A stretch of DNA of 32,000 nt, taken from the NCBI RefSeq assembly GCF_036323395.1, contig NZ_AP028907.1, positions 1,290,001 through 1,322,000 of the forward strand. Reading direction: 5' to 3'. Within the stretch, counting starts at the first letter, position 1. Each line of letters begins with the position of its first letter. This document shows positions 3,363 through 15,730 of this stretch, one piece after another. Under the pieces are notes generated by a model, which searched no databases, was not told the DNA's origin, and saw only the letters and a program-made list of their open reading frames with translations. The translations under genes and the position numbers were made by a program. The stretch is from Pyrodictium abyssi (GTDB lineage: Archaea; Thermoproteota; Thermoprotei_A; Sulfolobales; Pyrodictiaceae).

Positions 3363-4064
3363 ATGCACTATGCTAGAAGGCCTGGAGGCATGAGCAACTA
3401 CGTAATACCCGCCCTGCTAGCACTGCTCATACTCCTCATAGTCCTTGCCTCCCGGGCAGGCCTGCCTCGCACCCCTTCCATGACCACCACGGCTACCGCC
3501 GCCAACACTGCAACTGTCTATGAAACCACATCTGGTACAAGGACGACTCCGCAGGAGAAAACCGCGGCAAGGGCGCCGGGGGTTACAGAGACGCGGACTA
3601 TAGGAGCCATAGCCGCTGTAGCCGCTGCGACGGCCACAGAGACTACAGAGACTACTAATGCCTCCGTCTGGTGTAGTATCACTTGCTACTATCTAACAGG
3701 TATCGAGCCAGAGTCTCTACTAGCCAGGTACTGGGCTGCAGCAGTGATAGAGCCGGACGAGGCAGATGACACAGTTATAGCTGAGGCGAGGAAGCACAGC
3801 GGCCCCGTCCTAGCCTACTTGAACGCCGGGTACGCCGAGGAGTGGAGAGACTACTGGAACGCCATTCGAGACGAACCCTGGGTCCACGGCGCTACCGTGT
3901 ATGAGGGCGAGTACTACGTGGAGTACTGGCGCCCAGAGTGGAGGGAGACACTCATAGAGCTGGCGGAGAGGTACCTTGCTAGGGGCTTCCAGGGCGTCTA
4001 TCTGGACAACATAGATGCTGCTAAGCTGCTCGCCGAGAAACACCCTCCTGGGCCCAGGGGGTAG
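3363..4064 (+). CDS. N-terminal part of a membrane-anchored GH114-like (TM1410/endo-alpha-1,4-polygalactosaminidase family) glycoside hydrolase; frame broken at 4062
   Basis: N-terminal TM helix (VIPALLALLILLIVLA), then a Thr-rich linker, then TIM-barrel motifs typical of PF03537-like proteins (LAYLNAGYAEEWRDYW, GFQGVYLDNIDA). It stops right after the DNID motif. Alternative start ATG 3390. Confidence 0.6.
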   Translation: MHYARRPGGMSNYVIPALLALLILLIVLASRAGLPRTPSMTTTATAANTATVYETTSGTRTTPQEKTAARAPGVTETRTIGAIAAVAAATATETTETTNASVWCSITCYYLTGIEPESLLARYWAAAVIEPDEADDTVIAEARKHSGPVLAYLNAGYAEEWRDYWNAIRDEPWVHGATVYEGEYYVEYWRPEWRETLIELAERYLARGFQGVYLDNIDAAKLLAEKHPPGPRG

Positions 4065-4078
4065 ACCCGCGGGAGGCC

Positions 4079-4480
4079 ATGATAGACCTCGTCTGCGGCG
4101 TGTCCCACGCCGTGAAGACCCTGGACCCGGAAGCAAGGGTCTACATCAACATCGGCAGCGCCATGAACATGCTCTACGACGAGAGGCTCCTCAGCTGCAT
4201 AGACGGGGTCCTCCGGGAGGAGCTGTGGAGCCGCCTGGGCCCCTCGGGGCCCGAGCCCCAGGACCCCCGGGAGACCGTGGAGGCCCTAGACGCGCTCGTC
4301 TATGCCCATAGCCGCGGCAAGACTGTGCTCGTAGCCGACCCCGTCGCTGGCAGGGAGGAGGCTGAGGGCTTCTGCAGGAGGGCATGGAGCCATGGCTTCG
4401 TGCCTATCCCTCAGCCCGCGTGGGCTGCTGACTATAGCGTTCCGCCTCCGCGGGACTGGTGCCGCTGCAGCCAGGGATAG
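4079..4480 (+). CDS. C-terminal part of the same GH114-like hydrolase, in another frame
   Basis: This frame is open from 4025 and continues the family pattern (VYINIGSAMN..., VLREELW, AHSRGKTVLVAD). See the finding on the G5 run at 4057-4061. The two pieces are probably one gene, a pseudogene, or a sequencing error. Confidence 0.6.
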   Translation: MIDLVCGVSHAVKTLDPEARVYINIGSAMNMLYDERLLSCIDGVLREELWSRLGPSGPEPQDPRETVEALDALVYAHSRGKTVLVADPVAGREEAEGFCRRAWSHGFVPIPQPAWAADYSVPPPRDWCRCSQG

Positions 4481-4523
4481 GCGCCATGGGCTCTGGGCGT
4501 ATTTAGCCCCGGGTCTTGGCGCT

Positions 4524-5861
4524 ATGTGTCCCGGCGTGCCCGGGGGGAGGGTGGCGAGGACGAGTAGGGAGGGTAAGCTCAGCCTCTGGGAGGCTACAGC
4601 TATAGCCGTAGGCGTTATCATAGGCGCTAGTATCTTCTCCATACTGGGCGTCGGCGCAGAGATAGCGGGCAGGAACCTGCCGGTAGCTTTCATCCTAGCC
4701 TCTCTCGCCGCTAGCCTCGTGGCGTACTCCTACGCTAAGCTTGGTTCCAGGTTCGTCTCTAACGCTGGGCCTATAGAGTTCATCCTCAGGGGTATCGGCG
4801 ACAACATCGTGACCGGTGTGCTCGCGTTCATGCTCTGGTTCACCTACGTCGTGTCCATATCCTTGTTCGCCAAGACGTTCGCGGGCTACTTCCTAGCCCT
4901 AGTCGGAGCCGAGCTATCCCTGCTCAACACAGCCGCCGTGGAGGTGCTCGTCGTAGCCTTCTTCACCGCGCTGAACATCCGCGGCTCCAAGGCCGTGGGG
5001 AGGGCTGAGAGCCTCATAGTCGCCGCGAAGCTCGCAGTGCTAGGCGTCTTCGTGACCGCTGGCCTCTGGACTGTGAACCCGAGCTGGGTGGCGCCAGACC
5101 TCAGCCCGCGCCGCCTGGCGGGCGCCGTGTACGCTATGACGCTCTTCTTCCTTAGCTACACTGGCTTCGGCTTGGTGACCAACGCCTCGGAGGACGTTGA
5201 GGAGCCGGAGCGCAACGTGCCCCGCGCAATATACCTTAGCCTCGCGATAGCCACGCTAGTCTACGTCTCCATAGCCGTCGTGGCTGTGGGCAACCTGCCC
5301 GTAGAGAGGCTCGTAGAGGCCGAGGAGTACGCGCTAGCCGAGGCCGCTAGACCGTTCCTAGGCAGCCTAGGCTTCACTCTGGTCTCGCTTGGCGCTCTGC
5401 TCTCCACGAGCTCAGCTATCAACGCTACGCTCTACGGGGGCGCCAACATAGCCTACGCGCTAGCCAAGAAGGGTGAGCTGCCGGAGATCTTCGAGAGGAA
5501 GAAGTGGTTCGGCGAGCCAGAGGGCCTCTACCTGACAGCGCTCCTGGGGATGGCTTTCGCGCTCCTCCTGGACCTGGGCGGCGTGGCTGCCGTCTGCAGC
5601 GCCACGTTCATAGCCGTCTACCTGGCCGTGATAGTATCCCACTATAGGCTCGCAGACGAGACCCGGGGCAACAGGCTAGTCATAGCCGTCAGCTTCGTGG
5701 TGGTCCTGGCCATACTGGTGCTGCTCCTCTACTACCAGTGGCGCAGCAACCCCCGCGCGTTCTACACCATACTCCTAGTCTACGCCGCCGCCGTCCTCGT
5801 GGAGGCCGTGTACCGTAGGCTGTCTAGGCGTAGCTTCCGGAGGGCGCTACGCGCTGGCTAA
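4524..5861 (+). CDS. amino acid permease, APC superfamily
   Basis: About 12 predicted hydrophobic helices. The N-terminal signature KLSLWEATAIAVGVIIGASIFSILG is typical of APC transporters. The ORF is open from 4392, but that extension overlaps the upstream gene. ATG 4524 is chosen; GTG 4536 and 4551 are also possible. Confidence 0.8.
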   Translation: MCPGVPGGRVARTSREGKLSLWEATAIAVGVIIGASIFSILGVGAEIAGRNLPVAFILASLAASLVAYSYAKLGSRFVSNAGPIEFILRGIGDNIVTGVLAFMLWFTYVVSISLFAKTFAGYFLALVGAELSLLNTAAVEVLVVAFFTALNIRGSKAVGRAESLIVAAKLAVLGVFVTAGLWTVNPSWVAPDLSPRRLAGAVYAMTLFFLSYTGFGLVTNASEDVEEPERNVPRAIYLSLAIATLVYVSIAVVAVGNLPVERLVEAEEYALAEAARPFLGSLGFTLVSLGALLSTSSAINATLYGGANIAYALAKKGELPEIFERKKWFGEPEGLYLTALLGMAFALLLDLGGVAAVCSATFIAVYLAVIVSHYRLADETRGNRLVIAVSFVVVLAILVLLLYYQWRSNPRAFYTILLVYAAAVLVEAVYRRLSRRSFRRALRAG

Positions 5862-5951
5862 GCGTGGCCGGCTAGTCCACGCACATAGTAGGCCTCGGCT
5901 AGGATAAATACTGGACCCCTGGTCCAGGCCTTGCCGTGAGGTGGGCGAGCC

Positions 5952-7082
5952 GTGAGAAGAGCAGAGGCCATGGCCGTAGTAGCCGTGGCAGCCATCCTGG
6001 TGGCCGGATACCTGGCGGCAGACCGGGGAGGAGCACAGCCAGCCACAGCCACCGTGACCGTTAGAGCAGCCGTCACCTCCACAGTGACCACTACCACGGT
6101 TGAGACAGAGACCGCCACCGTGACGGCCACCGTCCCAGAGACGGTGACGACCACGGTCGTAGAGACCCATACGCGCATCGAGAAGCGGGTCGTCCTCGTC
6201 GACGCACTCGGCAGGACAGTGGAGCTAGAGAAGCCCGCCGAGCGGGTGGTGGCCCTAGCGCCGTCGATAACTGAGGATGCGTGCAGCCTAGGGCTCTGCA
6301 GCCGCCTAGTAGGCGTGGACAGCTTTTCCAAGAGCCTGCCAGGCGTCCCCAGCGAGGCCGCGGATGTCGGTGGCTACTGGCAGCCCAGTAGCGAGTCCAT
6401 CGCCGGGCTGAAGCCGGACCTCGTGCTGGCGTGCAGCGGCGTCCCCGCCCAGGAGCAGATGACCCGGCAGCTCGAGGGCCTCGGCGTCAAGGTGTTCTTC
6501 CTCCGCTGCGACAGGGCCCGCAGCCTGGACGACATCTACTGGGACCTACGCGCGGTAGCCGCCCTGCTAGGCGAGCCCCAGGCCGCCGACCGCGTCATAG
6601 AGTCGATGCGGGAGCGGATAGCCCTGCTCGAGAAGAGGCTAGCGAACACCACTAGGCCTAGCGTAGCGCTGCTGGTCTACCTTCAGGAGAACGGCGCCTG
6701 GGTAGCAGGCGGCGGCACGTTCCACGACACAGTGGTAGCGCTCGCCGGCGGCTCCAACGTGTTCCACAGCCTCTATGGCTGGCAGATGGTGGGCTACGAG
6801 GAGCTGGTCTCCCGGGACCCCGACTACATACTTGTGACCGGTATGACCCAGGCCGACTTCAACCGGACCATAGAGCTTATAGAGAAGACGCCGCTGCGCG
6901 AGGCCAAGGCGTTCCGGGAGGGCCACGTATGCGTCCTCTACGGCGCCGCTACAGACGCGCTCAACAGGCCCTCGCCGGGGATAGTGGACGCGGCCTACCT
7001 GCTAGCCTCGATACTCCACCCCGGCGCCGTTGAGCCGCCCGAGAGGCTAGCCGGCAACTATACCTGCCTCGGGCAGGGCTAG
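5952..7082 (+). CDS. ABC transporter substrate-binding protein, Fe-siderophore/cobalamin type (Peripla_BP_2-like), N-terminally anchored
   Basis: TM helix, then a Thr/Val-rich linker, then VVALAPSITEDACSLGL...LVGVD and KPDLVL motifs typical of BtuF/FhuD-class binding proteins. SD GAGGTGG lies 8 nt before GTG 5952. FecCD permease and ATPase genes follow. Confidence 0.8.
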   Translation: MRRAEAMAVVAVAAILVAGYLAADRGGAQPATATVTVRAAVTSTVTTTTVETETATVTATVPETVTTTVVETHTRIEKRVVLVDALGRTVELEKPAERVVALAPSITEDACSLGLCSRLVGVDSFSKSLPGVPSEAADVGGYWQPSSESIAGLKPDLVLACSGVPAQEQMTRQLEGLGVKVFFLRCDRARSLDDIYWDLRAVAALLGEPQAADRVIESMRERIALLEKRLANTTRPSVALLVYLQENGAWVAGGGTFHDTVVALAGGSNVFHSLYGWQMVGYEELVSRDPDYILVTGMTQADFNRTIELIEKTPLREAKAFREGHVCVLYGAATDALNRPSPGIVDAAYLLASILHPGAVEPPERLAGNYTCLGQG

Positions 7083-7117
7083 AGGGGCAGCGAGCACCAC
7101 TGGGGGCGCCCGGGGCC

Positions 7118-8092
7118 GTGCACACCCGGCGTGTTTTTACAGCGCTCGCGGGCACCATCCTCCTGCTCTTCCTCGTCAGCCTCGCCGTGGGCCCTGCTGG
7201 GCTCCGCAACCCCCTAGAGCCGGGGCACTGGGACCTAGTGCTCCGCCTTAGGCTGCTACGGAGCCTCCTCGCCCTGGGTGTCGGTGCCGCGCTAGGCGCC
7301 GCCGGCTCATTCATCCAGTACAGCGTCTCGAACCCGCTGGCGAGCCCCAGCATCCTAGGGGTAGCGCCGGGCGCGCTAGCAGCATCCGTGCTGGTTGTCC
7401 TAGCCTGGGGCGGCTCACCCCCGCTCGGAGCCCCCCTCCTCGCGGGGACACTGGGCGGGCTAGCAGCCTACCTGGCCTCGGCTGGCATAGCTGCGCGGCT
7501 CGGGTTCACCCGGGTAGGCCTAGTCCTGGCGGGCGTAGCCGTCTCTAGCACGCTCTCCGGGCTCTCGAGCCTCCTACTCCTTCTCGCCGAGGCGCGGCTC
7601 CGCATACCCGCCTCGCTGACCCTCCTCGGCAGCTTCGCCTACGCTACCCCCTCCAGCGTCTACATAGCATCGGCCGCCGCCGGGACAGGGCTGGTGGCCG
7701 GGCTGGTGCTCTCCCGCGGCCTCGACGCCGTCTCCTACGGCGACGAGGCGGCCGCCGCCATGGGGTATAGCCCCTCCCGTGTGCGGCTCGCAGCGAGCCT
7801 AGCCTCGGCCGCGCTGACATCTGTCTGCGTCTACGCCGCTGGCATAGTCGGGTTCGTGGGCCTCGTGGCCCCCAACGCCGCCCGGCTGCTCGTGGGCGGC
7901 CACCCCCGGGTCAGCCTGCCCGCCTCCCTGCTACTCGGCGCAGGCACCGCACTGGCCGCTGACCTGGCTGGTAGGCTTGCCGCGCTAGTCCTGGGGCTCG
8001 GCGAGGTGCCGGCGGGCCTCGTCACGAGCAGCGTCGGCGGCCTCTTCCTAGCCTACATGCTTCTCCGCGGGGCACTGGAGAGGGAGGCGTAG
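7118..8092 (+). CDS. ABC transporter permease, FecCD/BtuC family
   Basis: Polytopic Gly/Ala/Leu-rich membrane protein of 324 aa. Its size and pattern fit FecCD family permeases (…GVGAALGAAGSFIQ…, …VGGLFLAYMLLR). It lies between the binding-protein gene and the ATPase gene. Confidence 0.8.
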   Translation: MHTRRVFTALAGTILLLFLVSLAVGPAGLRNPLEPGHWDLVLRLRLLRSLLALGVGAALGAAGSFIQYSVSNPLASPSILGVAPGALAASVLVVLAWGGSPPLGAPLLAGTLGGLAAYLASAGIAARLGFTRVGLVLAGVAVSSTLSGLSSLLLLLAEARLRIPASLTLLGSFAYATPSSVYIASAAAGTGLVAGLVLSRGLDAVSYGDEAAAAMGYSPSRVRLAASLASAALTSVCVYAAGIVGFVGLVAPNAARLLVGGHPRVSLPASLLLGAGTALAADLAGRLAALVLGLGEVPAGLVTSSVGGLFLAYMLLRGALEREA

Positions 8093-8094
8093 GC

Positions 8095-8880
8095 ATGGCG
8101 GCCGAGCCGCTGAGGGCTCTGAGCGTGTACGCCGAGCGGGGCGGCAGCCCCGTGCTCCGAGGAGTGACGCTGGAGGCGCCGCCAGGCGAGGTGACGGTAG
8201 TGCTCGGCCCCAACGGCGCCGGGAAGACCACGCTCCTCCAGGTGCTGGGGGGCCTCCATAGGCCTAGCCGGGGGCGCGTCCTCCTCGGAGACCTCGACGT
8301 CCACGCCCTCGCGGCCCGGGACCGGGCCAGGCTCATAGCCTACGTGCCCGCTGTGCTAGAGGCGCCGGGCCTCGGCCAGAGGGTCGAAGAGTTCGTCGCG
8401 GCTAGCCGGTACCCTCTCCACCGGGGGCTCGGCCTAGGCCCCGAGAGAGAGGACCTCGAAGAGGCGTGGCGCCAGCTCAGCCGCGTCGAGGCAGACCGGC
8501 TGGCTGGGAGGAAGCTCAGCGCGCTCAGCAGCGGCGAGAAGCAGAGGGCACTACTAGCACACGCCCTGGCGCGGGGCTCACGGGTGCTCCTAGTGGACGA
8601 GCCTACGAGCTTCCTCGACATGCGGGGTAAGCTGCTTGTCTACAAGCTTCTCCGCGAAGAGGCGCGCCGCGGCCGAGTAGTAGTCGCTGTGACACACGAC
8701 ATGCTCCTCGCCGGGCTCTACGCCGACCAGGTGGTGCTCCTCTCCGAGGGGAGGGTTGTAGCCCAGGGTACGCCCACAGAGGTACTCAGCCCAGAGCTCC
8801 TAGAGAAGGTGTTCCACGTGAGGGTCGAACTCCTCCGACTTGGAGGCAGGGTTGTACCACTGCCTGTGGACACCGCGTAG
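8095..8880 (+). CDS. ABC transporter ATP-binding protein (FepC/BtuD-like)
   Basis: Walker A GPNGAGKTTLL, signature LSSGEKQR, Walker B LLVDEPTSFLD, H-loop VTHD. The ATG is 2 nt after the permease stop. Confidence 0.9.
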   Translation: MAAEPLRALSVYAERGGSPVLRGVTLEAPPGEVTVVLGPNGAGKTTLLQVLGGLHRPSRGRVLLGDLDVHALAARDRARLIAYVPAVLEAPGLGQRVEEFVAASRYPLHRGLGLGPEREDLEEAWRQLSRVEADRLAGRKLSALSSGEKQRALLAHALARGSRVLLVDEPTSFLDMRGKLLVYKLLREEARRGRVVVAVTHDMLLAGLYADQVVLLSEGRVVAQGTPTEVLSPELLEKVFHVRVELLRLGGRVVPLPVDTA

Positions 8881-8968: not shown

Positions 8969-11194
8969 CTACTTGACCTCTACTGTGATCTCGCTGAACC
9001 TGGTACCGCCGTATAGTAGCGGGCCAGCGTAGTTGTCTGGGTCTAGGTAGTCGGGCGCCCAGCCGATGATGTAGACGTCGAAGTCACCCTTCTCGGTCTT
9101 ACCTAGTAGTGTCGGCCAGTTGAGCGCCTTCACTGTTATCTTGAAGCCTAGCTGGCCCCAGGTCTGCTGCAACATAGCCGCTATCTTCTCGCGCTGGCTG
9201 TTACCCTTGTTATACCATATCTCTATCGTGTAGTCTGCTGGGTTGATGCCGCTCTTCTGTATCAGCTCAGCAGCCTTGGCGGGATCGAAGGTGTACTTAA
9301 TCACTATGTCGTCGTTGTGGCCTGGGAACCCGGCGGGTATCACGCCGTAGAGCCTCTCTAGGTACCCAGCGTACACGGCGTCCTTTATCTGGTCGAAGGG
9401 TATCATGTACATTAGCGCCTGCCTTACCAGGGTGTTGTCGAACGGCTTCTTCATCGTGTTGAGCACTATGTAGACGATTGTTGGCTCTAGGCCGCCCTCC
9501 TCTACCTTTATCTCGAAGTCAGTGCCCTCCATCTTGTAGCCACGTACATCCTTTAGCCTGTCTAGAGGAATGGCACCAGTGTCTGCCTGGCCGGACTTCA
9601 GTATCTCTATCCTAGAGACAGCGTCGTTGTTTATCAGGTAGATTACTGTCTTGTGGCTGGGCACGCCGTTCTCGCCGTATGGTGGCTGGTTCCATAGAGT
9701 CTTGTTCCAGTAGTAGGGGTTGTACTCGAGGATTATGTAGCTGTTCTCCTTGTACTCCTTGACGTAGTATGGGCCGGTGCCTACGGGCTTCTTGTTGAGC
9801 AGTAGGTGTGTCGGGTCCTGGTCGCCGGGCTGTATGTAGGCTGCCCATGCCTCCGGCTTCTTGCCGTTCTCGCTGGCTGCTAAGGCCTCCTTGTACTTGC
9901 CCTTCAGCTGGTCAACGTTGTCGAAGAGGTACTTCATGGGTATTACGCTTAGGAATGGGTCGCTCAGTATGCTGAGTATAGCGCTGTAGGGCTGGTATAG
10001 CTTGAGCTTTACTACGCCGGCTGTCTCGCCGCTATAGCCGAAGAACTTTAGCAGCTCGTCTAGGCTCTTAGCCTCAATTGTCTTGCCCTTGTAGTCGGCG
10101 TAGATACCGCCGTTTGCTAGTATCTTGTTAAACTCGTCCTCTGTCAGCACGCTGGAGGCGTTTACGTCTATGAACTCTGTCACCATCCAGCTTGGGTCGA
10201 GGCCTAGCCTGGCTACACGCCATATGCTGAACAGTACGTCGACAGCGCTTATGTCATAGGTCTTCTGGTTCCAAGGGTCATAGGCTTTAACACCGCCCCT
10301 TATCACGAAGTACCACTCGGTGCCGTCCTTGTTGTGTGCCCAGGCTACTGCTAGGTCTGGGCTTACCTCCTTAGTCTCATCCTTCCAGAAGGTCACTAGG
10401 GTGTCGCCTATGTTGTGCCATATGGCCCAGCCGAAGGTCTCGTAGTCCGCAGCGGGGTCGAAGGTGTCAGGCCAGCCTATAGTGACTATCACGTATGTGC
10501 TGGGGTCGTTCTTGTAGCCTCCGAGGCCCAGGTCTACGCTGGGGGCGTTCTTGTCCTCCCATAGCAGGTCGTAGCGCTCTGCTAGGGTCGGGTGGTAGTA
10601 GCGGCCGTGGAGCCAGCTCCACTGGGTGCGTACTAGCTTGTACTGGCCTAGCCAGAGGGTTGGGACCTCGTAATTGCTCAGCTTGTATACTGCCTCGTAT
10701 AGTATCTCGCGTATCTCTGGGTTTGTCTCCTTACGGGCCGCCATTATGAGCGCGTCTATCGTCTCGTTGCGGTAGAACGCGGGGTTTATGTCGCTGAAGG
10801 CGAGGGATTTTTCAACTGGCTTGGTCTTCTCCTTGTCTACCACGTACCTTACTACTACCAGCTTCTTGCCGCCCGTGCTTATCTCTGGTATCTCGACGCC
10901 CTTGGGCGCCACCACTACCACTGCCTTGCTGGTCTCGATGACCTTCACCCCCTCGGGCAGCTTAGCCGGCTTAGCCGCTGTGGTTGTGGCGGCTGTCGTC
11001 TGCTGGGTTGTCGTTGTTGCCAGCGTTGTAGCTGGAGTGGCCGCCGTCTCTGCTGCAGATGTGGTAGTCTGCGCGGTTGTTATCTGCGTAGCTGTTGGCG
11101 TCTTCTCGCCGCCGCGGAGGGCTATGAAAGCGCTCGCCACAATGAGGATTAGTACTAGCACACCTATGAGGGCCTTGTTAGAGACCATGGTCAT
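8969..11194 (-). CDS. ABC peptide/oligopeptide substrate-binding protein, family 5 (DppA/OppA-like), N-terminally anchored, apparently circularly permuted
   Basis: TM helix plus Thr-rich linker. Family 5 motifs present: VGTGPYYVKEY...ILEYNPYYW, FDNTLVRQALMYMIPFDQI, GWAPDYLDPDNY. SD AAGGTG lies before the ATG. The gene is divergent from the matching BCDF genes. See the finding for the domain order. Confidence 0.85.
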   Translation of the reverse strand: MTMVSNKALIGVLVLILIVASAFIALRGGEKTPTATQITTAQTTTSAAETAATPATTLATTTTQQTTAATTTAAKPAKLPEGVKVIETSKAVVVVAPKGVEIPEISTGGKKLVVVRYVVDKEKTKPVEKSLAFSDINPAFYRNETIDALIMAARKETNPEIREILYEAVYKLSNYEVPTLWLGQYKLVRTQWSWLHGRYYHPTLAERYDLLWEDKNAPSVDLGLGGYKNDPSTYVIVTIGWPDTFDPAADYETFGWAIWHNIGDTLVTFWKDETKEVSPDLAVAWAHNKDGTEWYFVIRGGVKAYDPWNQKTYDISAVDVLFSIWRVARLGLDPSWMVTEFIDVNASSVLTEDEFNKILANGGIYADYKGKTIEAKSLDELLKFFGYSGETAGVVKLKLYQPYSAILSILSDPFLSVIPMKYLFDNVDQLKGKYKEALAASENGKKPEAWAAYIQPGDQDPTHLLLNKKPVGTGPYYVKEYKENSYIILEYNPYYWNKTLWNQPPYGENGVPSHKTVIYLINNDAVSRIEILKSGQADTGAIPLDRLKDVRGYKMEGTDFEIKVEEGGLEPTIVYIVLNTMKKPFDNTLVRQALMYMIPFDQIKDAVYAGYLERLYGVIPAGFPGHNDDIVIKYTFDPAKAAELIQKSGINPADYTIEIWYNKGNSQREKIAAMLQQTWGQLGFKITVKALNWPTLLGKTEKGDFDVYIIGWAPDYLDPDNYAGPLLYGGTRFSEITVEVK

Positions 11195-11418
11195 ACACCT
11201 TTAATCACTCTTTGAGTTTTGGGCTAACCGGTTACCATGTCTACGAGTCGTGATGCCAACTGAGGGGCTTTATAACCCTAGTGTGCTCTGAAGGCTCTGT
11301 TTTACGTTTAACTATGTGGAACAACGTTCCCGCAAGGGTTATTCAAGGGGCGCCGCAGCCCCCGGGACAACAGCCGGGAGGGGCGCTGGCGGGCCCAAGG
11401 GCTGCCAGGTGAGCTTCT
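11195..11418. promoter_or_regulatory. divergent promoter region of the peptide ABC locus
   Basis: 224-nt AT-rich intergenic region with TATA-like CTTTATAAC (11268-11276) and GTTTTACGTTTAACTA (11299-11314). A GC-rich stretch follows, then SD AGGTGA before GTG 11419. Confidence 0.5.
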
Positions 11419-12417
11419 GTGGCCGACCTTAAGCGCTTCATAGTGCGTAGGCTCATAACCTTCGTACCCACTATTATAGGTGTGACGCTGCTAGTCTACG
11501 TGATCGCCGCCATCATCCCTGCGAACCCTGCTAAGCTGTGGGCGGGTGGCCAGAAGGCCTCCCCGGAGGTCGTGGAGAGGCTGATCAAGGAGTACCATCT
11601 CGACGAGCCCTGGTACGTCCAGTACTACTACTTCATGAAGAACCTGCTCTTCGGGAATGCCGTGAGCCCTGTGACGCACAACAACGTCTGGGAAGAGATA
11701 ATGGACCGGTTCCTCACCGTTACTCTCCCGCTCACGTTGCTAGCCTTCATAATGATAATTGCTATAGGTATTCCTCTAGGCATTATAGCCGCGATTAAGC
11801 GCGACACCATAGTAGACATGGTTATACGCGGCTTTGCCCTGATAGGCCTCTCTACGCCTATATTCTGGCTCGCCTACCTCATGATATTCCTCCTCTACCC
11901 GCACGGATTGATAACACTGGCCGGTATACCCACCCCGCCGTACAAGATAACGGGTGTGCCTCTGATAGATGCCCTGCTTAAGCTCGACTTTGGCTACCTG
12001 GCTATGCTGCTTAAGAGGCTCTGGCTGCCAGCGCTGATGCTAGCCTATGGCGGTATAGGTTTCATGACCAGGCTTGTGAGGAATAGCTTCCTCGACGCCT
12101 ACACTAGGGACTACGTTGAGTTCATGGAGGCCCGTGGCTTCCCCCGGATGAGGATATACCGGCATGTGCTCCGCAATGCGCTGGCGCCTATAGTGACTAT
12201 GCTAGGGCTGCAGTTCGGCGGGCTCCTAGCAGGCACGCCGATAACCGAGACGGTGTTCGGCCTGCCTGGGCTAGGCCTCTACATGATGCAGGCCATAGAC
12301 AACTTTGACTACATGTCTCTCACCGCGGGTGTGCTACTCGTAGCCTTCATATACACGTCGATGAACCTCATAGTGGACATACTCTACGCTATTATCGACC
12401 CAAGGGTCCGGTACTAG
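11419..12417 (+). CDS. ABC peptide transporter permease (DppB/OppB-like)
   Basis: BPD_transp_1-type permease. The N-terminus RFIVRRLITFVPTIIGVTLLVYV and C-terminus DILYAIIDPRVRY are hallmark DppB/OppB ends. Confidence 0.9.
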   Translation: MADLKRFIVRRLITFVPTIIGVTLLVYVIAAIIPANPAKLWAGGQKASPEVVERLIKEYHLDEPWYVQYYYFMKNLLFGNAVSPVTHNNVWEEIMDRFLTVTLPLTLLAFIMIIAIGIPLGIIAAIKRDTIVDMVIRGFALIGLSTPIFWLAYLMIFLLYPHGLITLAGIPTPPYKITGVPLIDALLKLDFGYLAMLLKRLWLPALMLAYGGIGFMTRLVRNSFLDAYTRDYVEFMEARGFPRMRIYRHVLRNALAPIVTMLGLQFGGLLAGTPITETVFGLPGLGLYMMQAIDNFDYMSLTAGVLLVAFIYTSMNLIVDILYAIIDPRVRY

Positions 12418-12450: not shown

Positions 12451-13650
12451 ATGGTCGTGTTGCCGGGCGAGGTGTACGAGAAGAAGCTCTTAGACCGCGT
12501 GGCTGACGCGCTAGTGGCGGGTTTCGCCGCTATAGCTGACCGGCTGAGCCCTGGCTGGAGCACGAGGAACCGGGGCCGGCTCGACGAGTGGAGGCTGATG
12601 CTCTACACGCTGAACAGGTCGCCCCTAGGCCTAGCAGGAGTAGCGCTCGTGACGTTCTTCCTCTTCCTCGCGTTGTTTGGGCCGCGCATAGCACCTCTCA
12701 GCTACGATAGCCAGATATTCCTATGCGACCCGGATGCACGTCTTGCGCCGCCAGGAACTGTGGTAAACATCCCCGATAACCCGTTCTGCCGGCAGCTCGG
12801 GCTGAAGCCCGGCAACTTCACCATGCTCCTCGGCGGCGACGACTATGGCAGGGACCTATGGAGCCGTATACTCTACGGCGCGCGTACGAGCCTCATAGTG
12901 GCTATACTGGTGATGCTTGTCGGGCCGTGGATAGGCATAGCGCTGGGCCTAATAGCGGGCTATTACGGGGGCATGATAGACGAGCTAATAATGAGGATAA
13001 CCGACGTATTCTTGGCGTTCCCCGGCCTCATCCTGGCTATAGCATTCTCAGCCGTCCTCCCGTACAGGCTCCAGGACTTCATGGAGGCGCACCCGCTCGT
13101 AGCCGACGTGCTCCGTGTACTCTTCGCAGTGAAGCCCAAGGACGAGCCCGCGCTAGCCAGCCTACTGGCCGTGATAGTAGCGCTCTGGCTAGTCTGGTGG
13201 CCAAGCTACGCTAGGCTTGTCAGAGGCATGGTGCTCAGCGCCAGGGAGAACACATACGTTGAGGCGGCCCGGGCCCTGGGTATACCGACGTGGAGGATAC
13301 TCGCCGTACACATACTCCCGAACATAGCGGGCCCGATACTAGTGATGCTCACCATAGACTTTGGCGGCGTCATACTGACCGAGGCTGGTCTGAGCTTCCT
13401 AGGCCTCGGCGCTGTGCCGCCGCTAGCCGACTGGGGCCGGATAATATACGACGGCTCCCAGTACTTCCCGGACAGCTGGTGGCTAGTGTTCTTCCCAGGC
13501 CTCATGATATTCCTCACTGTTTTCGGCTTCAACCTGCTCGGGGACACGCTCCGGGACATACTCGACCCCAAGATACGTAGGAGCATCGAGTTCAAGGTGA
13601 AGAAGACGAAGGCCAGGCAAACAGCGATGACGGGGGAGGTGACACAGTAG
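12451..13650 (+). CDS. ABC peptide transporter permease (DppC/OppC-like)
   Basis: OppC_N-like segment (GLAGVALVTFFLFLALFGPRIAP), GGDDYGRDLWSRILYGAR, EAARALG, and C-terminal GDTLRDILDPK. GTG 12457 has better spacing from SD GGAGG, so the start is uncertain by 2 codons. Confidence 0.88.
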   Translation: MVVLPGEVYEKKLLDRVADALVAGFAAIADRLSPGWSTRNRGRLDEWRLMLYTLNRSPLGLAGVALVTFFLFLALFGPRIAPLSYDSQIFLCDPDARLAPPGTVVNIPDNPFCRQLGLKPGNFTMLLGGDDYGRDLWSRILYGARTSLIVAILVMLVGPWIGIALGLIAGYYGGMIDELIMRITDVFLAFPGLILAIAFSAVLPYRLQDFMEAHPLVADVLRVLFAVKPKDEPALASLLAVIVALWLVWWPSYARLVRGMVLSARENTYVEAARALGIPTWRILAVHILPNIAGPILVMLTIDFGGVILTEAGLSFLGLGAVPPLADWGRIIYDGSQYFPDSWWLVFFPGLMIFLTVFGFNLLGDTLRDILDPKIRRSIEFKVKKTKARQTAMTGEVTQ

Positions 13651-14660
13651 TGGCTAGGGAGCTCCGCTGCAAAGACCCCATAGTGGAGGTGCGGGGTCTC
13701 TACGTCAACTTCTACACCTACGCCGGGGTAGTGAAGGCTATAGAGGACGTAAGCTTCTGCATCGAGCGTGGCGAGACCTACTGCCTCGTCGGCGAGACGG
13801 GCTGTGGCAAGAGCGTCACTAGCAGGGCCCTGACGAGGCTTATCCGGCCTCCGGGCCGGATAGAGAGGGGGGAGATAATCTACTACCCGGAGCCCGGCAA
13901 ACCCGTGGACATTATGAAGCTGAGCGAGGAGGAGCTCAACCGGATACGTGGCAACGAGATAGCCTACATATTCCAGGACCCTGGTGCCGCGCTCGACCCG
14001 CTCTACGTTATAGGCTACCAGGTATCGGAGACTATGCTCGTCCACGGCAAGATAAGGAAGCTGAAGGAGGGAATCGGGCGCGCAGTAGAGCTGCTAAGGA
14101 GGACACTGATACCAGACCCAGAGTCGCGTGTGAAGGCCTACCCGCACGAGCTGAGCGGCGGCATGAGGCAGAGGAGCGTGATAAGCATAGGCCTGGCTAA
14201 CAAGCCAAAGCTCCTGATAGCCGACGAGCCGACAACGGCCCTGGACGCTACCGTCCAGGCCCAGGTGATGGAGCTACTCCGCCGCCTCAAGCGGGAGGAG
14301 GGGCTCACGCTCCTCCTCATAACCCACAACATGGGCCTCGTGGCCGAGATGTGCGACCGGGTCGCGGTGATGTACGCGGGCCACATAGTAGAGGAGGCTC
14401 CTGTGGTGGAGCTGTTCCGCCGCCCCATGCACCCCTATACGCGGGCGCTTCTCCGGGCCGTACCCGACCCCACCAGGAAGATCGAGAAGCTAGAATCAAT
14501 ACCAGGTACTGTACCGAACCTTGTCAACCCGCCGCCGGGCTGCAGGTTCCACCCAAGGTGCCCCCACGCTATGCCAGTGTGTAGCCAGAGACGCCCGCCA
14601 TACACGCGCGTGAGCGAGAGCCACTACGTGGCCTGCTGGCTATACCCCGAGAAGGCGTGA
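13650..14660 (+). CDS. ABC peptide transporter ATP-binding protein (DppD/OppD-like)
   Basis: Walker A GETGCGKS, signature LSGGMRQR, Walker B LLIADEPTTALD. C-terminal oligopeptide-transporter domain with Cys motif GCRFHPRCPHAMPVC...VACW. GTG overlaps the upstream stop (TAGTG) and is preceded by SD GGAGGTGA. Confidence 0.92.
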   Translation: MARELRCKDPIVEVRGLYVNFYTYAGVVKAIEDVSFCIERGETYCLVGETGCGKSVTSRALTRLIRPPGRIERGEIIYYPEPGKPVDIMKLSEEELNRIRGNEIAYIFQDPGAALDPLYVIGYQVSETMLVHGKIRKLKEGIGRAVELLRRTLIPDPESRVKAYPHELSGGMRQRSVISIGLANKPKLLIADEPTTALDATVQAQVMELLRRLKREEGLTLLLITHNMGLVAEMCDRVAVMYAGHIVEEAPVVELFRRPMHPYTRALLRAVPDPTRKIEKLESIPGTVPNLVNPPPGCRFHPRCPHAMPVCSQRRPPYTRVSESHYVACWLYPEKA

Positions 14661-14677: not shown

Positions 14678-15730
14678 GTGCTCCGTCCCGCGCAGAAGCG
14701 CAGCGAGCAGGACCAGGGCTACAGGGAGGCCCTGGCCGAGCTGGGCAGGATGTTCCCCGGCGAGGAGCCCCTCGTGCTGGTGCACCATCTCCGCAAGTAC
14801 TTCCCGGTGAAGGGCATCTTCTTCACCCGGGACTGGGTGCGCGCGGTCGACGACGTCTCCTTCATGATACCGAGGGGCAAGACGCTGGGGCTCGTGGGCG
14901 AGAGCGGCTCGGGCAAGACTACTATCGGTAGGCTGGTGCTCCGCCTGATAGAGCCAACCTCTGGTAGGGTGTTCTTCGAGGGCCGCGACATATTCAGGCT
15001 AGGGAGGAAGGAGCTTAGGAGGTTCCGCCGCGAGGCGCAGATGGTGTTCCAGGACCCGTATGGTAGCCTTAACCCCCGTATGACCGTGTATGGCCTCATT
15101 ACAGAGGTGCTCCGGGTACACGGTATAGAGGTTGACGACCCGTATAGCTACGTGGTTAGGCTGCTAGAGGAGGTAGGGCTCAACGAGACCCACGTCTACC
15201 GGTACCCCTACGAGTTTAGCGGCGGCCAGCGCCAGAGGATAGCTATAGCCCGTGTGCTAGCCCTGCGCCCCAAGTTCATAGTCCTGGACGAGCCCACTAG
15301 CGCGCTCGACGTGTCCGTGCAGGCCCAGATACTCAACATGCTCCGAGAGCTGCAGGCCCGGCACGGGCTTACCTACCTCTTCATAAGCCACGACCTGGGC
15401 GTCATACGTTACATGAGCGACTACATAGCAGTCATGTATCTCGGCAAGATAATCGAGCTTGGGCCCGCCGAGGAGGTGTTCGAGAAACCCCTCCACCCGT
15501 ACACGGAGATGCTGCTGGCCTCGATACCGGTGCCGGATCCGGAGAAGGCCCGGGCCCCGAGAAGGATAGAGGTGAAGGGCGAGCCGCCTAGCCCGATCAA
15601 CCCGCCGCCGGGCTGCAGGTTCCACCCAAGGTGCTGGAAGCGCGTGGAGAGATGCGGCCAGGAGGAGCCGCCGCTCGTGGAGGCCGAGAGGGGCCACTAC
15701 GTGGCCTGCTGGCTCTACGCCCGCCGCTAG
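14678..15730 (+). CDS. ABC peptide transporter ATP-binding protein (DppF/OppF-like)
   Basis: Walker A GESGSGKTT, signature FSGGQRQR, Walker B IVLDEPTSALD. C-terminal GCRFHPRCWKRVERC...VACW. SD GGGGGTGA lies before GTG 14678. ATG 14750 is an alternative start. Confidence 0.9.
   Translation: MLRPAQKRSEQDQGYREALAELGRMFPGEEPLVLVHHLRKYFPVKGIFFTRDWVRAVDDVSFMIPRGKTLGLVGESGSGKTTIGRLVLRLIEPTSGRVFFEGRDIFRLGRKELRRFRREAQMVFQDPYGSLNPRMTVYGLITEVLRVHGIEVDDPYSYVVRLLEEVGLNETHVYRYPYEFSGGQRQRIAIARVLALRPKFIVLDEPTSALDVSVQAQILNMLRELQARHGLTYLFISHDLGVIRYMSDYIAVMYLGKIIELGPAEEVFEKPLHPYTEMLLASIPVPDPEKARAPRRIEVKGEPPSPINPPPGCRFHPRCWKRVERCGQEEPPLVEAERGHYVACWLYARR

Follow-up and report, generated by a model that had tools for sequence, protein, structure and literature searches.

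A 32,000-nucleotide stretch of Pyrodictium abyssi contig NZ_AP028907.1 (positions 1,290,001 to 1,322,000; the window below) carries on its reverse strand, at 8969-11194, a gene of 741 codons plus a stop whose product is a permuted family 5 solute-binding protein, recognized from the list of open reading frames (ORFs) and from its match to PF00496, the Pfam model of family 5 solute-binding proteins (211.3 bits against a cutoff of 32.4, residues 276-730). We consider it very probable that the gene encodes the membrane-tethered receptor of a Dpp/Opp-type ATP-binding cassette (ABC) importer, with the DppA/OppA (cluster C) fold and a circularly permuted chain. The protein was 84% identical to that of Pyrodictium occultum and 93% identical to a metagenomic protein (P0001), and the nearest relatives of solved structure by sequence were the DppA proteins of Yersinia and E. 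coli (E 2.5e-34). An initial annotation of the window had read the stretch around residues 133-215 as the extreme C-terminus of a canonical DppA/OppA protein, displaced to the front of the chain. The ORF, its coordinates and the sequences quoted there were as we found them, the observation itself is confirmed, and the permutation that it implied is supported with two corrections, which concern an overlooked insert and unsupported junction relics.

Read from the N-terminus, with every segment on the reverse strand, the protein begins with a membrane anchor at residues 8-26 (ALIGVLVLILIVASAFIAL; 11117-11173), which by hydropathy is the top 19-residue Kyte-Doolittle window of the protein (mean 3.07) and has a hydrophobic stretch as its counterpart in all full-length relatives. 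There follows a Thr/Ala-rich stalk (residues 31-79; 10958-11104), defined by a composition of 21 Thr and 13 Ala among 49 residues; its length and sequence vary among relatives, and Pfam gives only weak mucin-like matches to it. Residues 80-132 (10799-10957), three β-strands delimited by conservation and by an AlphaFold2 model, are the N-terminal part of a family-specific insert. Behind them come residues 133-215 (10550-10798), two helices and a long strand that profile matches identify as the transplanted canonical C-terminal tail, and then, between the two profile matches, an 18-residue linker from the old C-terminus to the old N-terminus (residues 216-233, NAPSVDLGLGGYKNDPSTY; 10496-10549), for which AlphaFold2 predicts a short hairpin. 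The canonical N-terminal half, comprising the first lobe and the extra domain, occupies residues 234-513 (9656-10495), which aligned to DppA 32-124 onward and to positions 31 to about 230 of a canonical profile. The canonical second lobe, residues 514-728 (9011-9655), contains Asp715 in a GWAPDY motif, aligned to DppA 203-447 and took the profile to position 438. The chain then ends with the C-terminal piece of the insert (residues 729-741, ...GGTRFSEITVEVK; 8972-9010), the last strand of the AlphaFold2 model. A missing C-terminus is not encoded downstream, since the stop codon lies only 88 bp from the next gene, which is convergent and encodes an ABC ATPase.

This order is not peculiar to the window but recurs across hyperthermophilic archaea. 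Among the 120 closest homologues, 95 share it, including proteins from the complete genomes of Hyperthermus, Staphylothermus, Thermococcus and Pyrococcus, while the other 25 run second lobe, insert, tail, N-terminal half (the Pyrobaculum order) and none is canonical. Although the exact window protein is absent from the public protein collection and many of its relatives come from metagenome bins, the chance that faulty assembly or annotation (such as the mis-joining of two adjacent binding-protein genes) or a pseudogene in decay explains the arrangement is negligible given the same order in these 95 homologues, isolate genomes included, the identical synteny in P. occultum, the unbroken reading frame, the proper N-terminal anchor and the highly confident AlphaFold2 model.

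The position of the tail was established with a canonical full-length profile of 524 positions, built on 71 canonical-order relatives. Profile positions 31-438 matched residues 228-728 of the window protein (335 bits), and positions 444-522 matched residues 134-212 (55.5 bits), placing the C-terminal end of the profile ahead of its N-terminal end, as had been anticipated. The two matches do not overlap and the break at 438/444 is clean, with nothing lost and nothing duplicated. The canonical N-terminal part starts near residue 234 by both the profile and the DppA alignment, and the ORF stops at about profile position 438-444, where canonical proteins continue into the tail. No tail match appeared when residues 133-215 were shuffled in twenty copies of the protein, the best of which scored -0.9 bits.

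The homology of residues 133-215 to the canonical tail was found in both directions. Four segment profiles (insert, tail, N-terminal half and second lobe) were cut from the family alignment and run on 149 representatives of 50%-identity clusters, themselves drawn from an exhaustive search of 1.84 billion proteins; in about 100 canonical-order representatives, the tail profile matched the extreme C-terminus, straight behind the second lobe, with E values from 1e-3 to 1e-17. When all PDB sequences were searched with a segment profile drawn from 36 diverse family members, 19 matches were obtained at E of 1 or below, and 17 of these were family 5 binding proteins, each matched in its last 60-80 residues (2wok 488-549 of 562, E 3e-4; 7kz8 418-459 of 491; 4qfk 456-507 of 541; 1uqw 431-497 of 509; 5f1q 468-532 of 543). 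When the segment was moved to the C-terminus by hand, alignments of this un-permuted construct to the solved structures of DppA, GsiB, DppE and AppA passed the junction and ran nearly to the ends of these proteins (5f1q 204-505; 1uqw 177-496 of 509; 8ay0 190-520 of 521; 1xoc 179-506 of 520). Full-length NCBIfam models likewise extended to their ends on the construct, and the GsiB model scored it at 86.3 bits, compared with 80.9 bits for the native order and 70.0 bits with the tail shuffled. The window protein thus has a family 5 fold in which the canonical last 80 or so residues are encoded first.

The tail does not, as first described, come directly after the Thr-rich linker, since the conserved β-rich residues 80-132 intervene. 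Residues 729-741 and 80-132 are the two halves of a single β-rich insert of about 65-75 residues; it follows the second lobe and precedes the tail, and it is within this insert that the window chain has been opened. The evidence comes from the Pyrobaculum-type relatives, in which ...YGGTRFKTLDVVE continues into a short helix, then into strands matching window residues 80-132, and then into INPAFYRN.... Residues 80-132 are kept in all 95 window-type and all 25 Pyrobaculum-type relatives, and in the latter they stand unbroken behind the second lobe. In the AlphaFold2 model, residues 729-741 supply the first strand of the insert (model residues 654-661) and residues 80-132 the other three (5-8, 12-18 and 32-40), the latter with a predicted local distance difference test score (pLDDT) of about 89-97. 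Opening of the chain inside the insert therefore explains the end of the ORF that had seemed abrupt. The motifs RFSEI and AFSDI near the two ends had been taken for leftover copies of a duplicated junction, relics of a duplication followed by truncation. They share F-S-[ED]-I and nothing more, and we rejected them as relics because Pyrobaculum-type chains, which are uninterrupted here, have both of them, one on each side of the insert; they form its entry and exit strands. Searches with the insert against the PDB and Pfam gave nothing credible, and no canonical-order relative with the insert was present among the 120 closest homologues or the 149 cluster representatives.

To place these segments in the fold, we modelled residues 80-741 with AlphaFold2 from a 96-sequence alignment. 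The mean pLDDT was 95.3 and the predicted template-modelling score (pTM) 0.91, with no segment below a pLDDT of 50, and the predicted structure is one rigid globule that takes in both insert and tail. The modelled tail consists of a helix, a second helix and a long strand, which we take to be the pattern of the DppA C-terminus. Foldseek searches of the PDB placed liganded DppA, GbpA and OppA on top with a probability of 1.00 and about 520 aligned columns. For 6ofq, 3m8u, 5f1q and 1dpp, the probability was 1.00 and the template-modelling (TM) score, normalized to the target, 0.68-0.69; a TM score of about 0.68 is the value that a collinear aligner should return for such a model if the last sixth of the target is unmatched in order. 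The model of a Pyrobaculum protein (P0113) aligned to the same structures over 350-385 columns, or about 370. That length is too long for either half and would fit the second lobe, insert and tail together (residues 98-467) in canonical order.

With this evidence in hand, it is very improbable that the protein is instead an un-permuted binding protein that has lost its C-terminus and gained an unrelated domain, residues 80-215, at its N-terminus. PF00496, which had been proposed as a check, recognized residues 276-730 and found nothing within 80-215, as such an extra domain would predict; however, the model covers the middle of the fold alone and is blind to the tail. The tail-inclusive profile, by contrast, matched 134-212 at a score that none of the 20 shuffles approached and broke cleanly, and in family 5 structures, as in about 100 canonical relatives, what the segment profile matched was the C-terminus. 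Some results do weigh against a permutation. As a single sequence, residues 117-233 matched the PDB weakly (E 0.1-0.6), although the binding proteins among these weak matches were aligned at their C-termini; profiles were used because such matches were suggestive but non-significant. The canonical set was picked with the family's own tail profile, which may have inflated the 55.5-bit score, whereas the un-permuted alignments, the NCBIfam scores and the segment-profile search of the PDB are free of this weakness. Finally, we infer the canonical position of the tail and the touching of the chain ends from homology, from the confidence of the AlphaFold2 model and from the continuous Pyrobaculum-type chain.

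The genes around the permuted gene point to its role. Across a divergent intergenic region (11195-11418, from the gene coordinates) lie four genes on the forward strand that Pfam identifies as dppB-like (11419-12417), dppC-like (12451-13650), dppD-like (13650-14660) and dppF-like (14678-15730), the permeases carrying BPD_transp_1 with BPD_transp_1_N or OppC_N and the ATPases ABC_tran with oligo_HPY. Divergent transcription from dppBCDF argues for an ABC-importer receptor, probably for peptides, and a Pyrobaculum-type permuted gene is likewise linked to dppBCDF in Pyrobaculum ferrireducens. In P. occultum, the gene order is the same and includes a neighbouring FecCD-type transporter and an amino-acid permease. 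In the window, the FecCD-type ABC importer (Peripla_BP_2, FecCD permease and ATPase; 5952-8880, forward strand) is convergent with the binding-protein gene, and the amino-acid permease (4392-5861, forward strand) lies upstream of it. The window protein would accordingly be ordinary as a transporter receptor, judging from its sequence and neighbours; its topology is unusual.

In the folded receptor, the two chain ends would be neighbours, because the elements that carry them are adjacent parts of a continuous insert in the relatives. The cleft, the hinge and the permease-docking surfaces would be those of an ordinary DppA-type protein, and what the permutation would change is where the anchor and stalk join the protein: on the insert, at the second lobe's outer face, in place of the first lobe. 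The receptor would take up its ligand (probably a short peptide) in the cleft, close around it and pass it to DppBC, with ATP hydrolyzed by DppDF.

A short peptide is the probable ligand, because Asp715 is conserved, the nearest solved relatives bind peptides or glutathione, and a protease gene neighbours a Pyrobaculum gene. Asp715 aligns with DppA Asp436 (precursor numbering), which in DppA binds the amino group of the peptide, and its conservation within the family is at least 90% (alignment column D636). In P. ferrireducens (CP003098, locus L086), a tricorn-type protease gene (3912-6965) lies directly upstream of the permuted gene and a PfpI/DJ-1 family gene (13304-13867) follows the transporter operon, which hints at peptide use. 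By its NCBIfam scores, the window protein is best regarded as a family 5 member that is the orthologue of no named equivalog, with the best, DppA_dipep (NF043070), at 118 bits against a cutoff of 1005, and those for SapA, GsiB, NikA and OppA all far below their cutoffs.

Several points tell against a peptide ligand. The Arg of DppA that binds the peptide carboxylate aligns with Asn662, no NCBIfam equivalog cutoff was reached, and many archaeal and Thermotoga proteins of family 5 bind sugars, such sugar binders being common in hyperthermophiles. For no family member did we find an experiment. A real permutation combined with an oligosaccharide or other non-peptide ligand nevertheless seems unlikely, given the conserved Asp715, the closest solved relatives by both sequence and fold (dipeptide, glutathione and oligopeptide binders), the position of the Pyrobaculum gene between a tricorn-type protease and a PfpI-family gene, and the lack of any glycoside hydrolase among the window neighbours examined.

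Returning to the order of the chain, we scanned one genome per species and kept 80 loci, many of the relatives being from metagenome bins. The window order was present at 49 loci, in Pyrodictiaceae, other Desulfurococcales, Acidilobaceae, Aeropyrum, Staphylothermus, Thermococcus and Archaeoglobus, and the Pyrobaculum order at 19. Of the remainder, three begin inside the second lobe at the equivalent of about window residue 555 (Thermoplasmata and Methanobacteriota bins), one begins at the equivalent of about residue 651 (an Asgard bin), three begin later in the insert (Staphylothermus, Ignisphaera and a Thermoproteota bin), and five are partial genes. In canonical-profile coordinates, the breaks fall at about 440, 230, 275 and 366, and for three of the other forms the curated Pfam model independently gave a rotated order. 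Sub-forms of the window order differ in the helix of the insert, which is N-terminal in Thermococcales, C-terminal in Desulfurococcales and lacking in Pyrodictiaceae, the window protein included. At least six chain starts therefore lie on one ring within the family. The joint from tail to N-terminus is common to all permuted types, with a short linker in each and, in most, a motif resembling N-(A/P)-x-x-P-D-T.

How many events produced these starts bears directly on the history of the family. All 25 Pyrobaculum-type proteins have the same start, K-x-F-H-K-x-V-I-Y, and most end in L-Y-G-[FY]-K-P or a close variant, two having a short extension. In a bootstrapped neighbour-joining tree of the re-ordered sequences, the window and Pyrobaculum forms are interleaved and the 25 proteins fall in five places, which leaves two readings, a multiple origin of window-like forms from a Pyrobaculum-like ancestor or a homogenization of paralogues. 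The shared start and mostly shared end, in proteins scattered over five places of a tree built by neighbour-joining alone and with low bootstrap at several deep nodes, would suit an origin of the chain starts in one or two events, with paralogues homogenized by gene conversion so that the interleaving does not record separate events. We regard that history as somewhat unlikely, however, since six break points are observed directly and independently of the tree, the helix of the insert is N-terminal in window-type Thermococcales and C-terminal in Desulfurococcales, and a pair of proteins, P0129 and P0130, represents a separate recent event in another lineage.

The permuted P0129 (locus L001, 8001-9749) and the canonical P0130 (locus L002, 8001-9692) were 84% identical over 352 residues and 83% identical over 160 residues, in rotated order, and mark a very recent permutation outside the family of the window protein. 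Their first 12 residues match at 9 of 12 positions, a stretch too short for significance alone (E = 10). P0130 heads its own dppBCDF operon, whereas P0129 lies in a two-receptor cluster with a divergent second binding-protein gene and dppBCDF. No leftover duplicated coding sequence was found around P0129, where the gene itself and its 26-30%-identical divergent paralogue were the only such sequences. In a neighbour-joining tree of all family 5, permuted and canonical proteins stand side by side; its deep branches are too weak for independent events beyond the close family to be counted, and we relied on it for the P0129/P0130 pair alone, which the direct comparison confirms. Further permuted proteins, distant and without the insert (P0132, P0141, P0155, P0156, P0228 and P0269), are scattered among canonical relatives in this rough tree, and several have a PGF-CTERM-like or lipobox anchor. 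Their breaks fall in the same two second-lobe loops as those of the window's family (profile positions of about 275 and 366), which suggests that these loops are preferred break sites.

Duplication followed by truncation had been offered as the route to the permutation on the strength of the RFSEI and AFSDI motifs, which lend it no support, and no tandem-duplicated intermediate was found for the family of the window protein. Elsewhere in family 5, tandem proteins do exist: P0172, P0186, P0189 and P0153 contain at least two family 5 units in tandem, with N-terminal half and second lobe repeated, and reach up to 4308 residues. These could be duplicated intermediates of the kind that are trimmed into permutants. 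We infer that the mature coding region was repeatedly duplicated and trimmed while the signal anchor in front of it was kept, and that this produced the different chain starts, because all permuted forms continue to open with a signal or membrane anchor; the tandem fusions were counted as further support. It is possible, and we propose it tentatively, that the family forms a natural permutation series in which one 500-residue, three-domain fold has been opened in at least six loops, and that family 5 has been re-permuted outside it at about the same two second-lobe loops, once so recently that the pair is still 84% identical. If this is true, tethered archaeal binding proteins would have an easy genetic route to new topologies, namely in-gene duplication of the mature region with trimming at both ends, and selection would act on the site of stalk attachment relative to the permease-docking face.

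Compared with the DppA proteins of E. coli and Yersinia and with cluster C structures in general (1DPP, 5F1Q, 3M8U, 6OFQ; OppA 1OLA), the window protein is alike in fold, by sequence and predicted structure, in its dppBCDF partner genes and in the Asp of the GW..D motif. It differs in its rotated order, in which the canonical last 80 or so residues come first, in an insert of about 65-75 residues that is present in no solved structure, and in being tethered by an N-terminal anchor and Thr-rich stalk, whereas DppA is free in the periplasm. In other crenarchaea, the Opp-type proteins of Sulfolobus solfataricus and the OppA of Aeropyrum pernix have a cleaved N-terminal signal and a C-terminal anchor, and their link to the membrane consists of a transmembrane segment and a Ser/Thr-rich stretch that is probably glycosylated (PMC3387779). 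The window protein is likewise an archaeal family 5 protein held to the membrane through a Thr-rich stretch, but its anchor (residues 8-26, the only strongly hydrophobic segment) and stalk (31-79) are N-terminal and its C-terminus is the strand ...FSEITVEVK; the chain order of the crenarchaeal Opp-type proteins would be canonical, judging from their C-terminal anchor. Some permuted relatives (P0121, P0122, P0127 and the protein at locus L060) have a hydrophobic segment at both ends, an N-terminal and a C-terminal anchor, and these receptors may be pinned to the membrane at two points.

A natural precedent for permutation is Treponema pallidum TpMglB-2 (Tp0684), a circularly permuted ABC binding protein that has kept ligand binding; its authors proposed a "cluster Bc" subclass with this protein as founding member, found mainly where binding proteins are tethered, and suggested tethering as the driver (PMC4990184). 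Both proteins are naturally permuted with the fold retained, that of the window protein being a predicted one. TpMglB-2, however, is a cluster B sugar binder for which a single topology is described, while the window's family belongs to cluster C and has at least six starts; all sequence and fold matches of the window protein were to cluster C, so it is not a member of cluster Bc. Circular permutants of periplasmic binding proteins have also been made in the laboratory for use as biosensors (PMC6335823). Those constructs are of other classes, and the permutation in the window is in contrast natural, conserved and repeated. Full-text searches on circular permutation in binding proteins, over a literature with few subscription papers, gave no description of a permuted family 5 protein, and such a protein has likely not been described before.

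Few transporter receptors are as numerous or as well studied as the family 5 (cluster C) proteins. The window protein indicates that a chain of this fold can begin at a new point in the second lobe, to which its relatives add five or more further sites. Together they amount to a test made by nature of which loops in a large hinge-bending protein may be opened while function is preserved, and their break points offer thermostable insertion points for sensor design. The pair that is 84% identical in permuted and canonical form, together with the several forms within one family, makes the mechanism of natural permutation testable on real intermediates, and both are relevant to the proposal made for TpMglB-2 that permutation is driven by membrane tethering. 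Repeated re-permutation in this family would be of interest in protein evolution and in the engineering of binding proteins. Permuted forms may also be mis-modelled by pipelines that assume collinear homology, and may acquire labels such as "DNA-binding protein". Several members (P0002, P0071, P0075, P0084 and P0111) carry that label in public records, probably an annotation error that has spread among atypical sequences.

Within the window, a scan for tRNA genes found none. An antisense ORF of 138 codons (10788-11204, forward strand) lies opposite the Thr-rich stalk region; its Val/Ala/Thr-rich product mirrors the ACN and GCN codons on the other strand, and nothing supports its status as a gene. 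The 2-kb bin at 10001-12000, which runs from the 5' region of the binding-protein gene across the divergent intergenic region into the start of dppB, has a G+C content of 0.554 and an AT skew of -0.20, compared with a G+C content of 0.61-0.69 in the other 2-kb bins.

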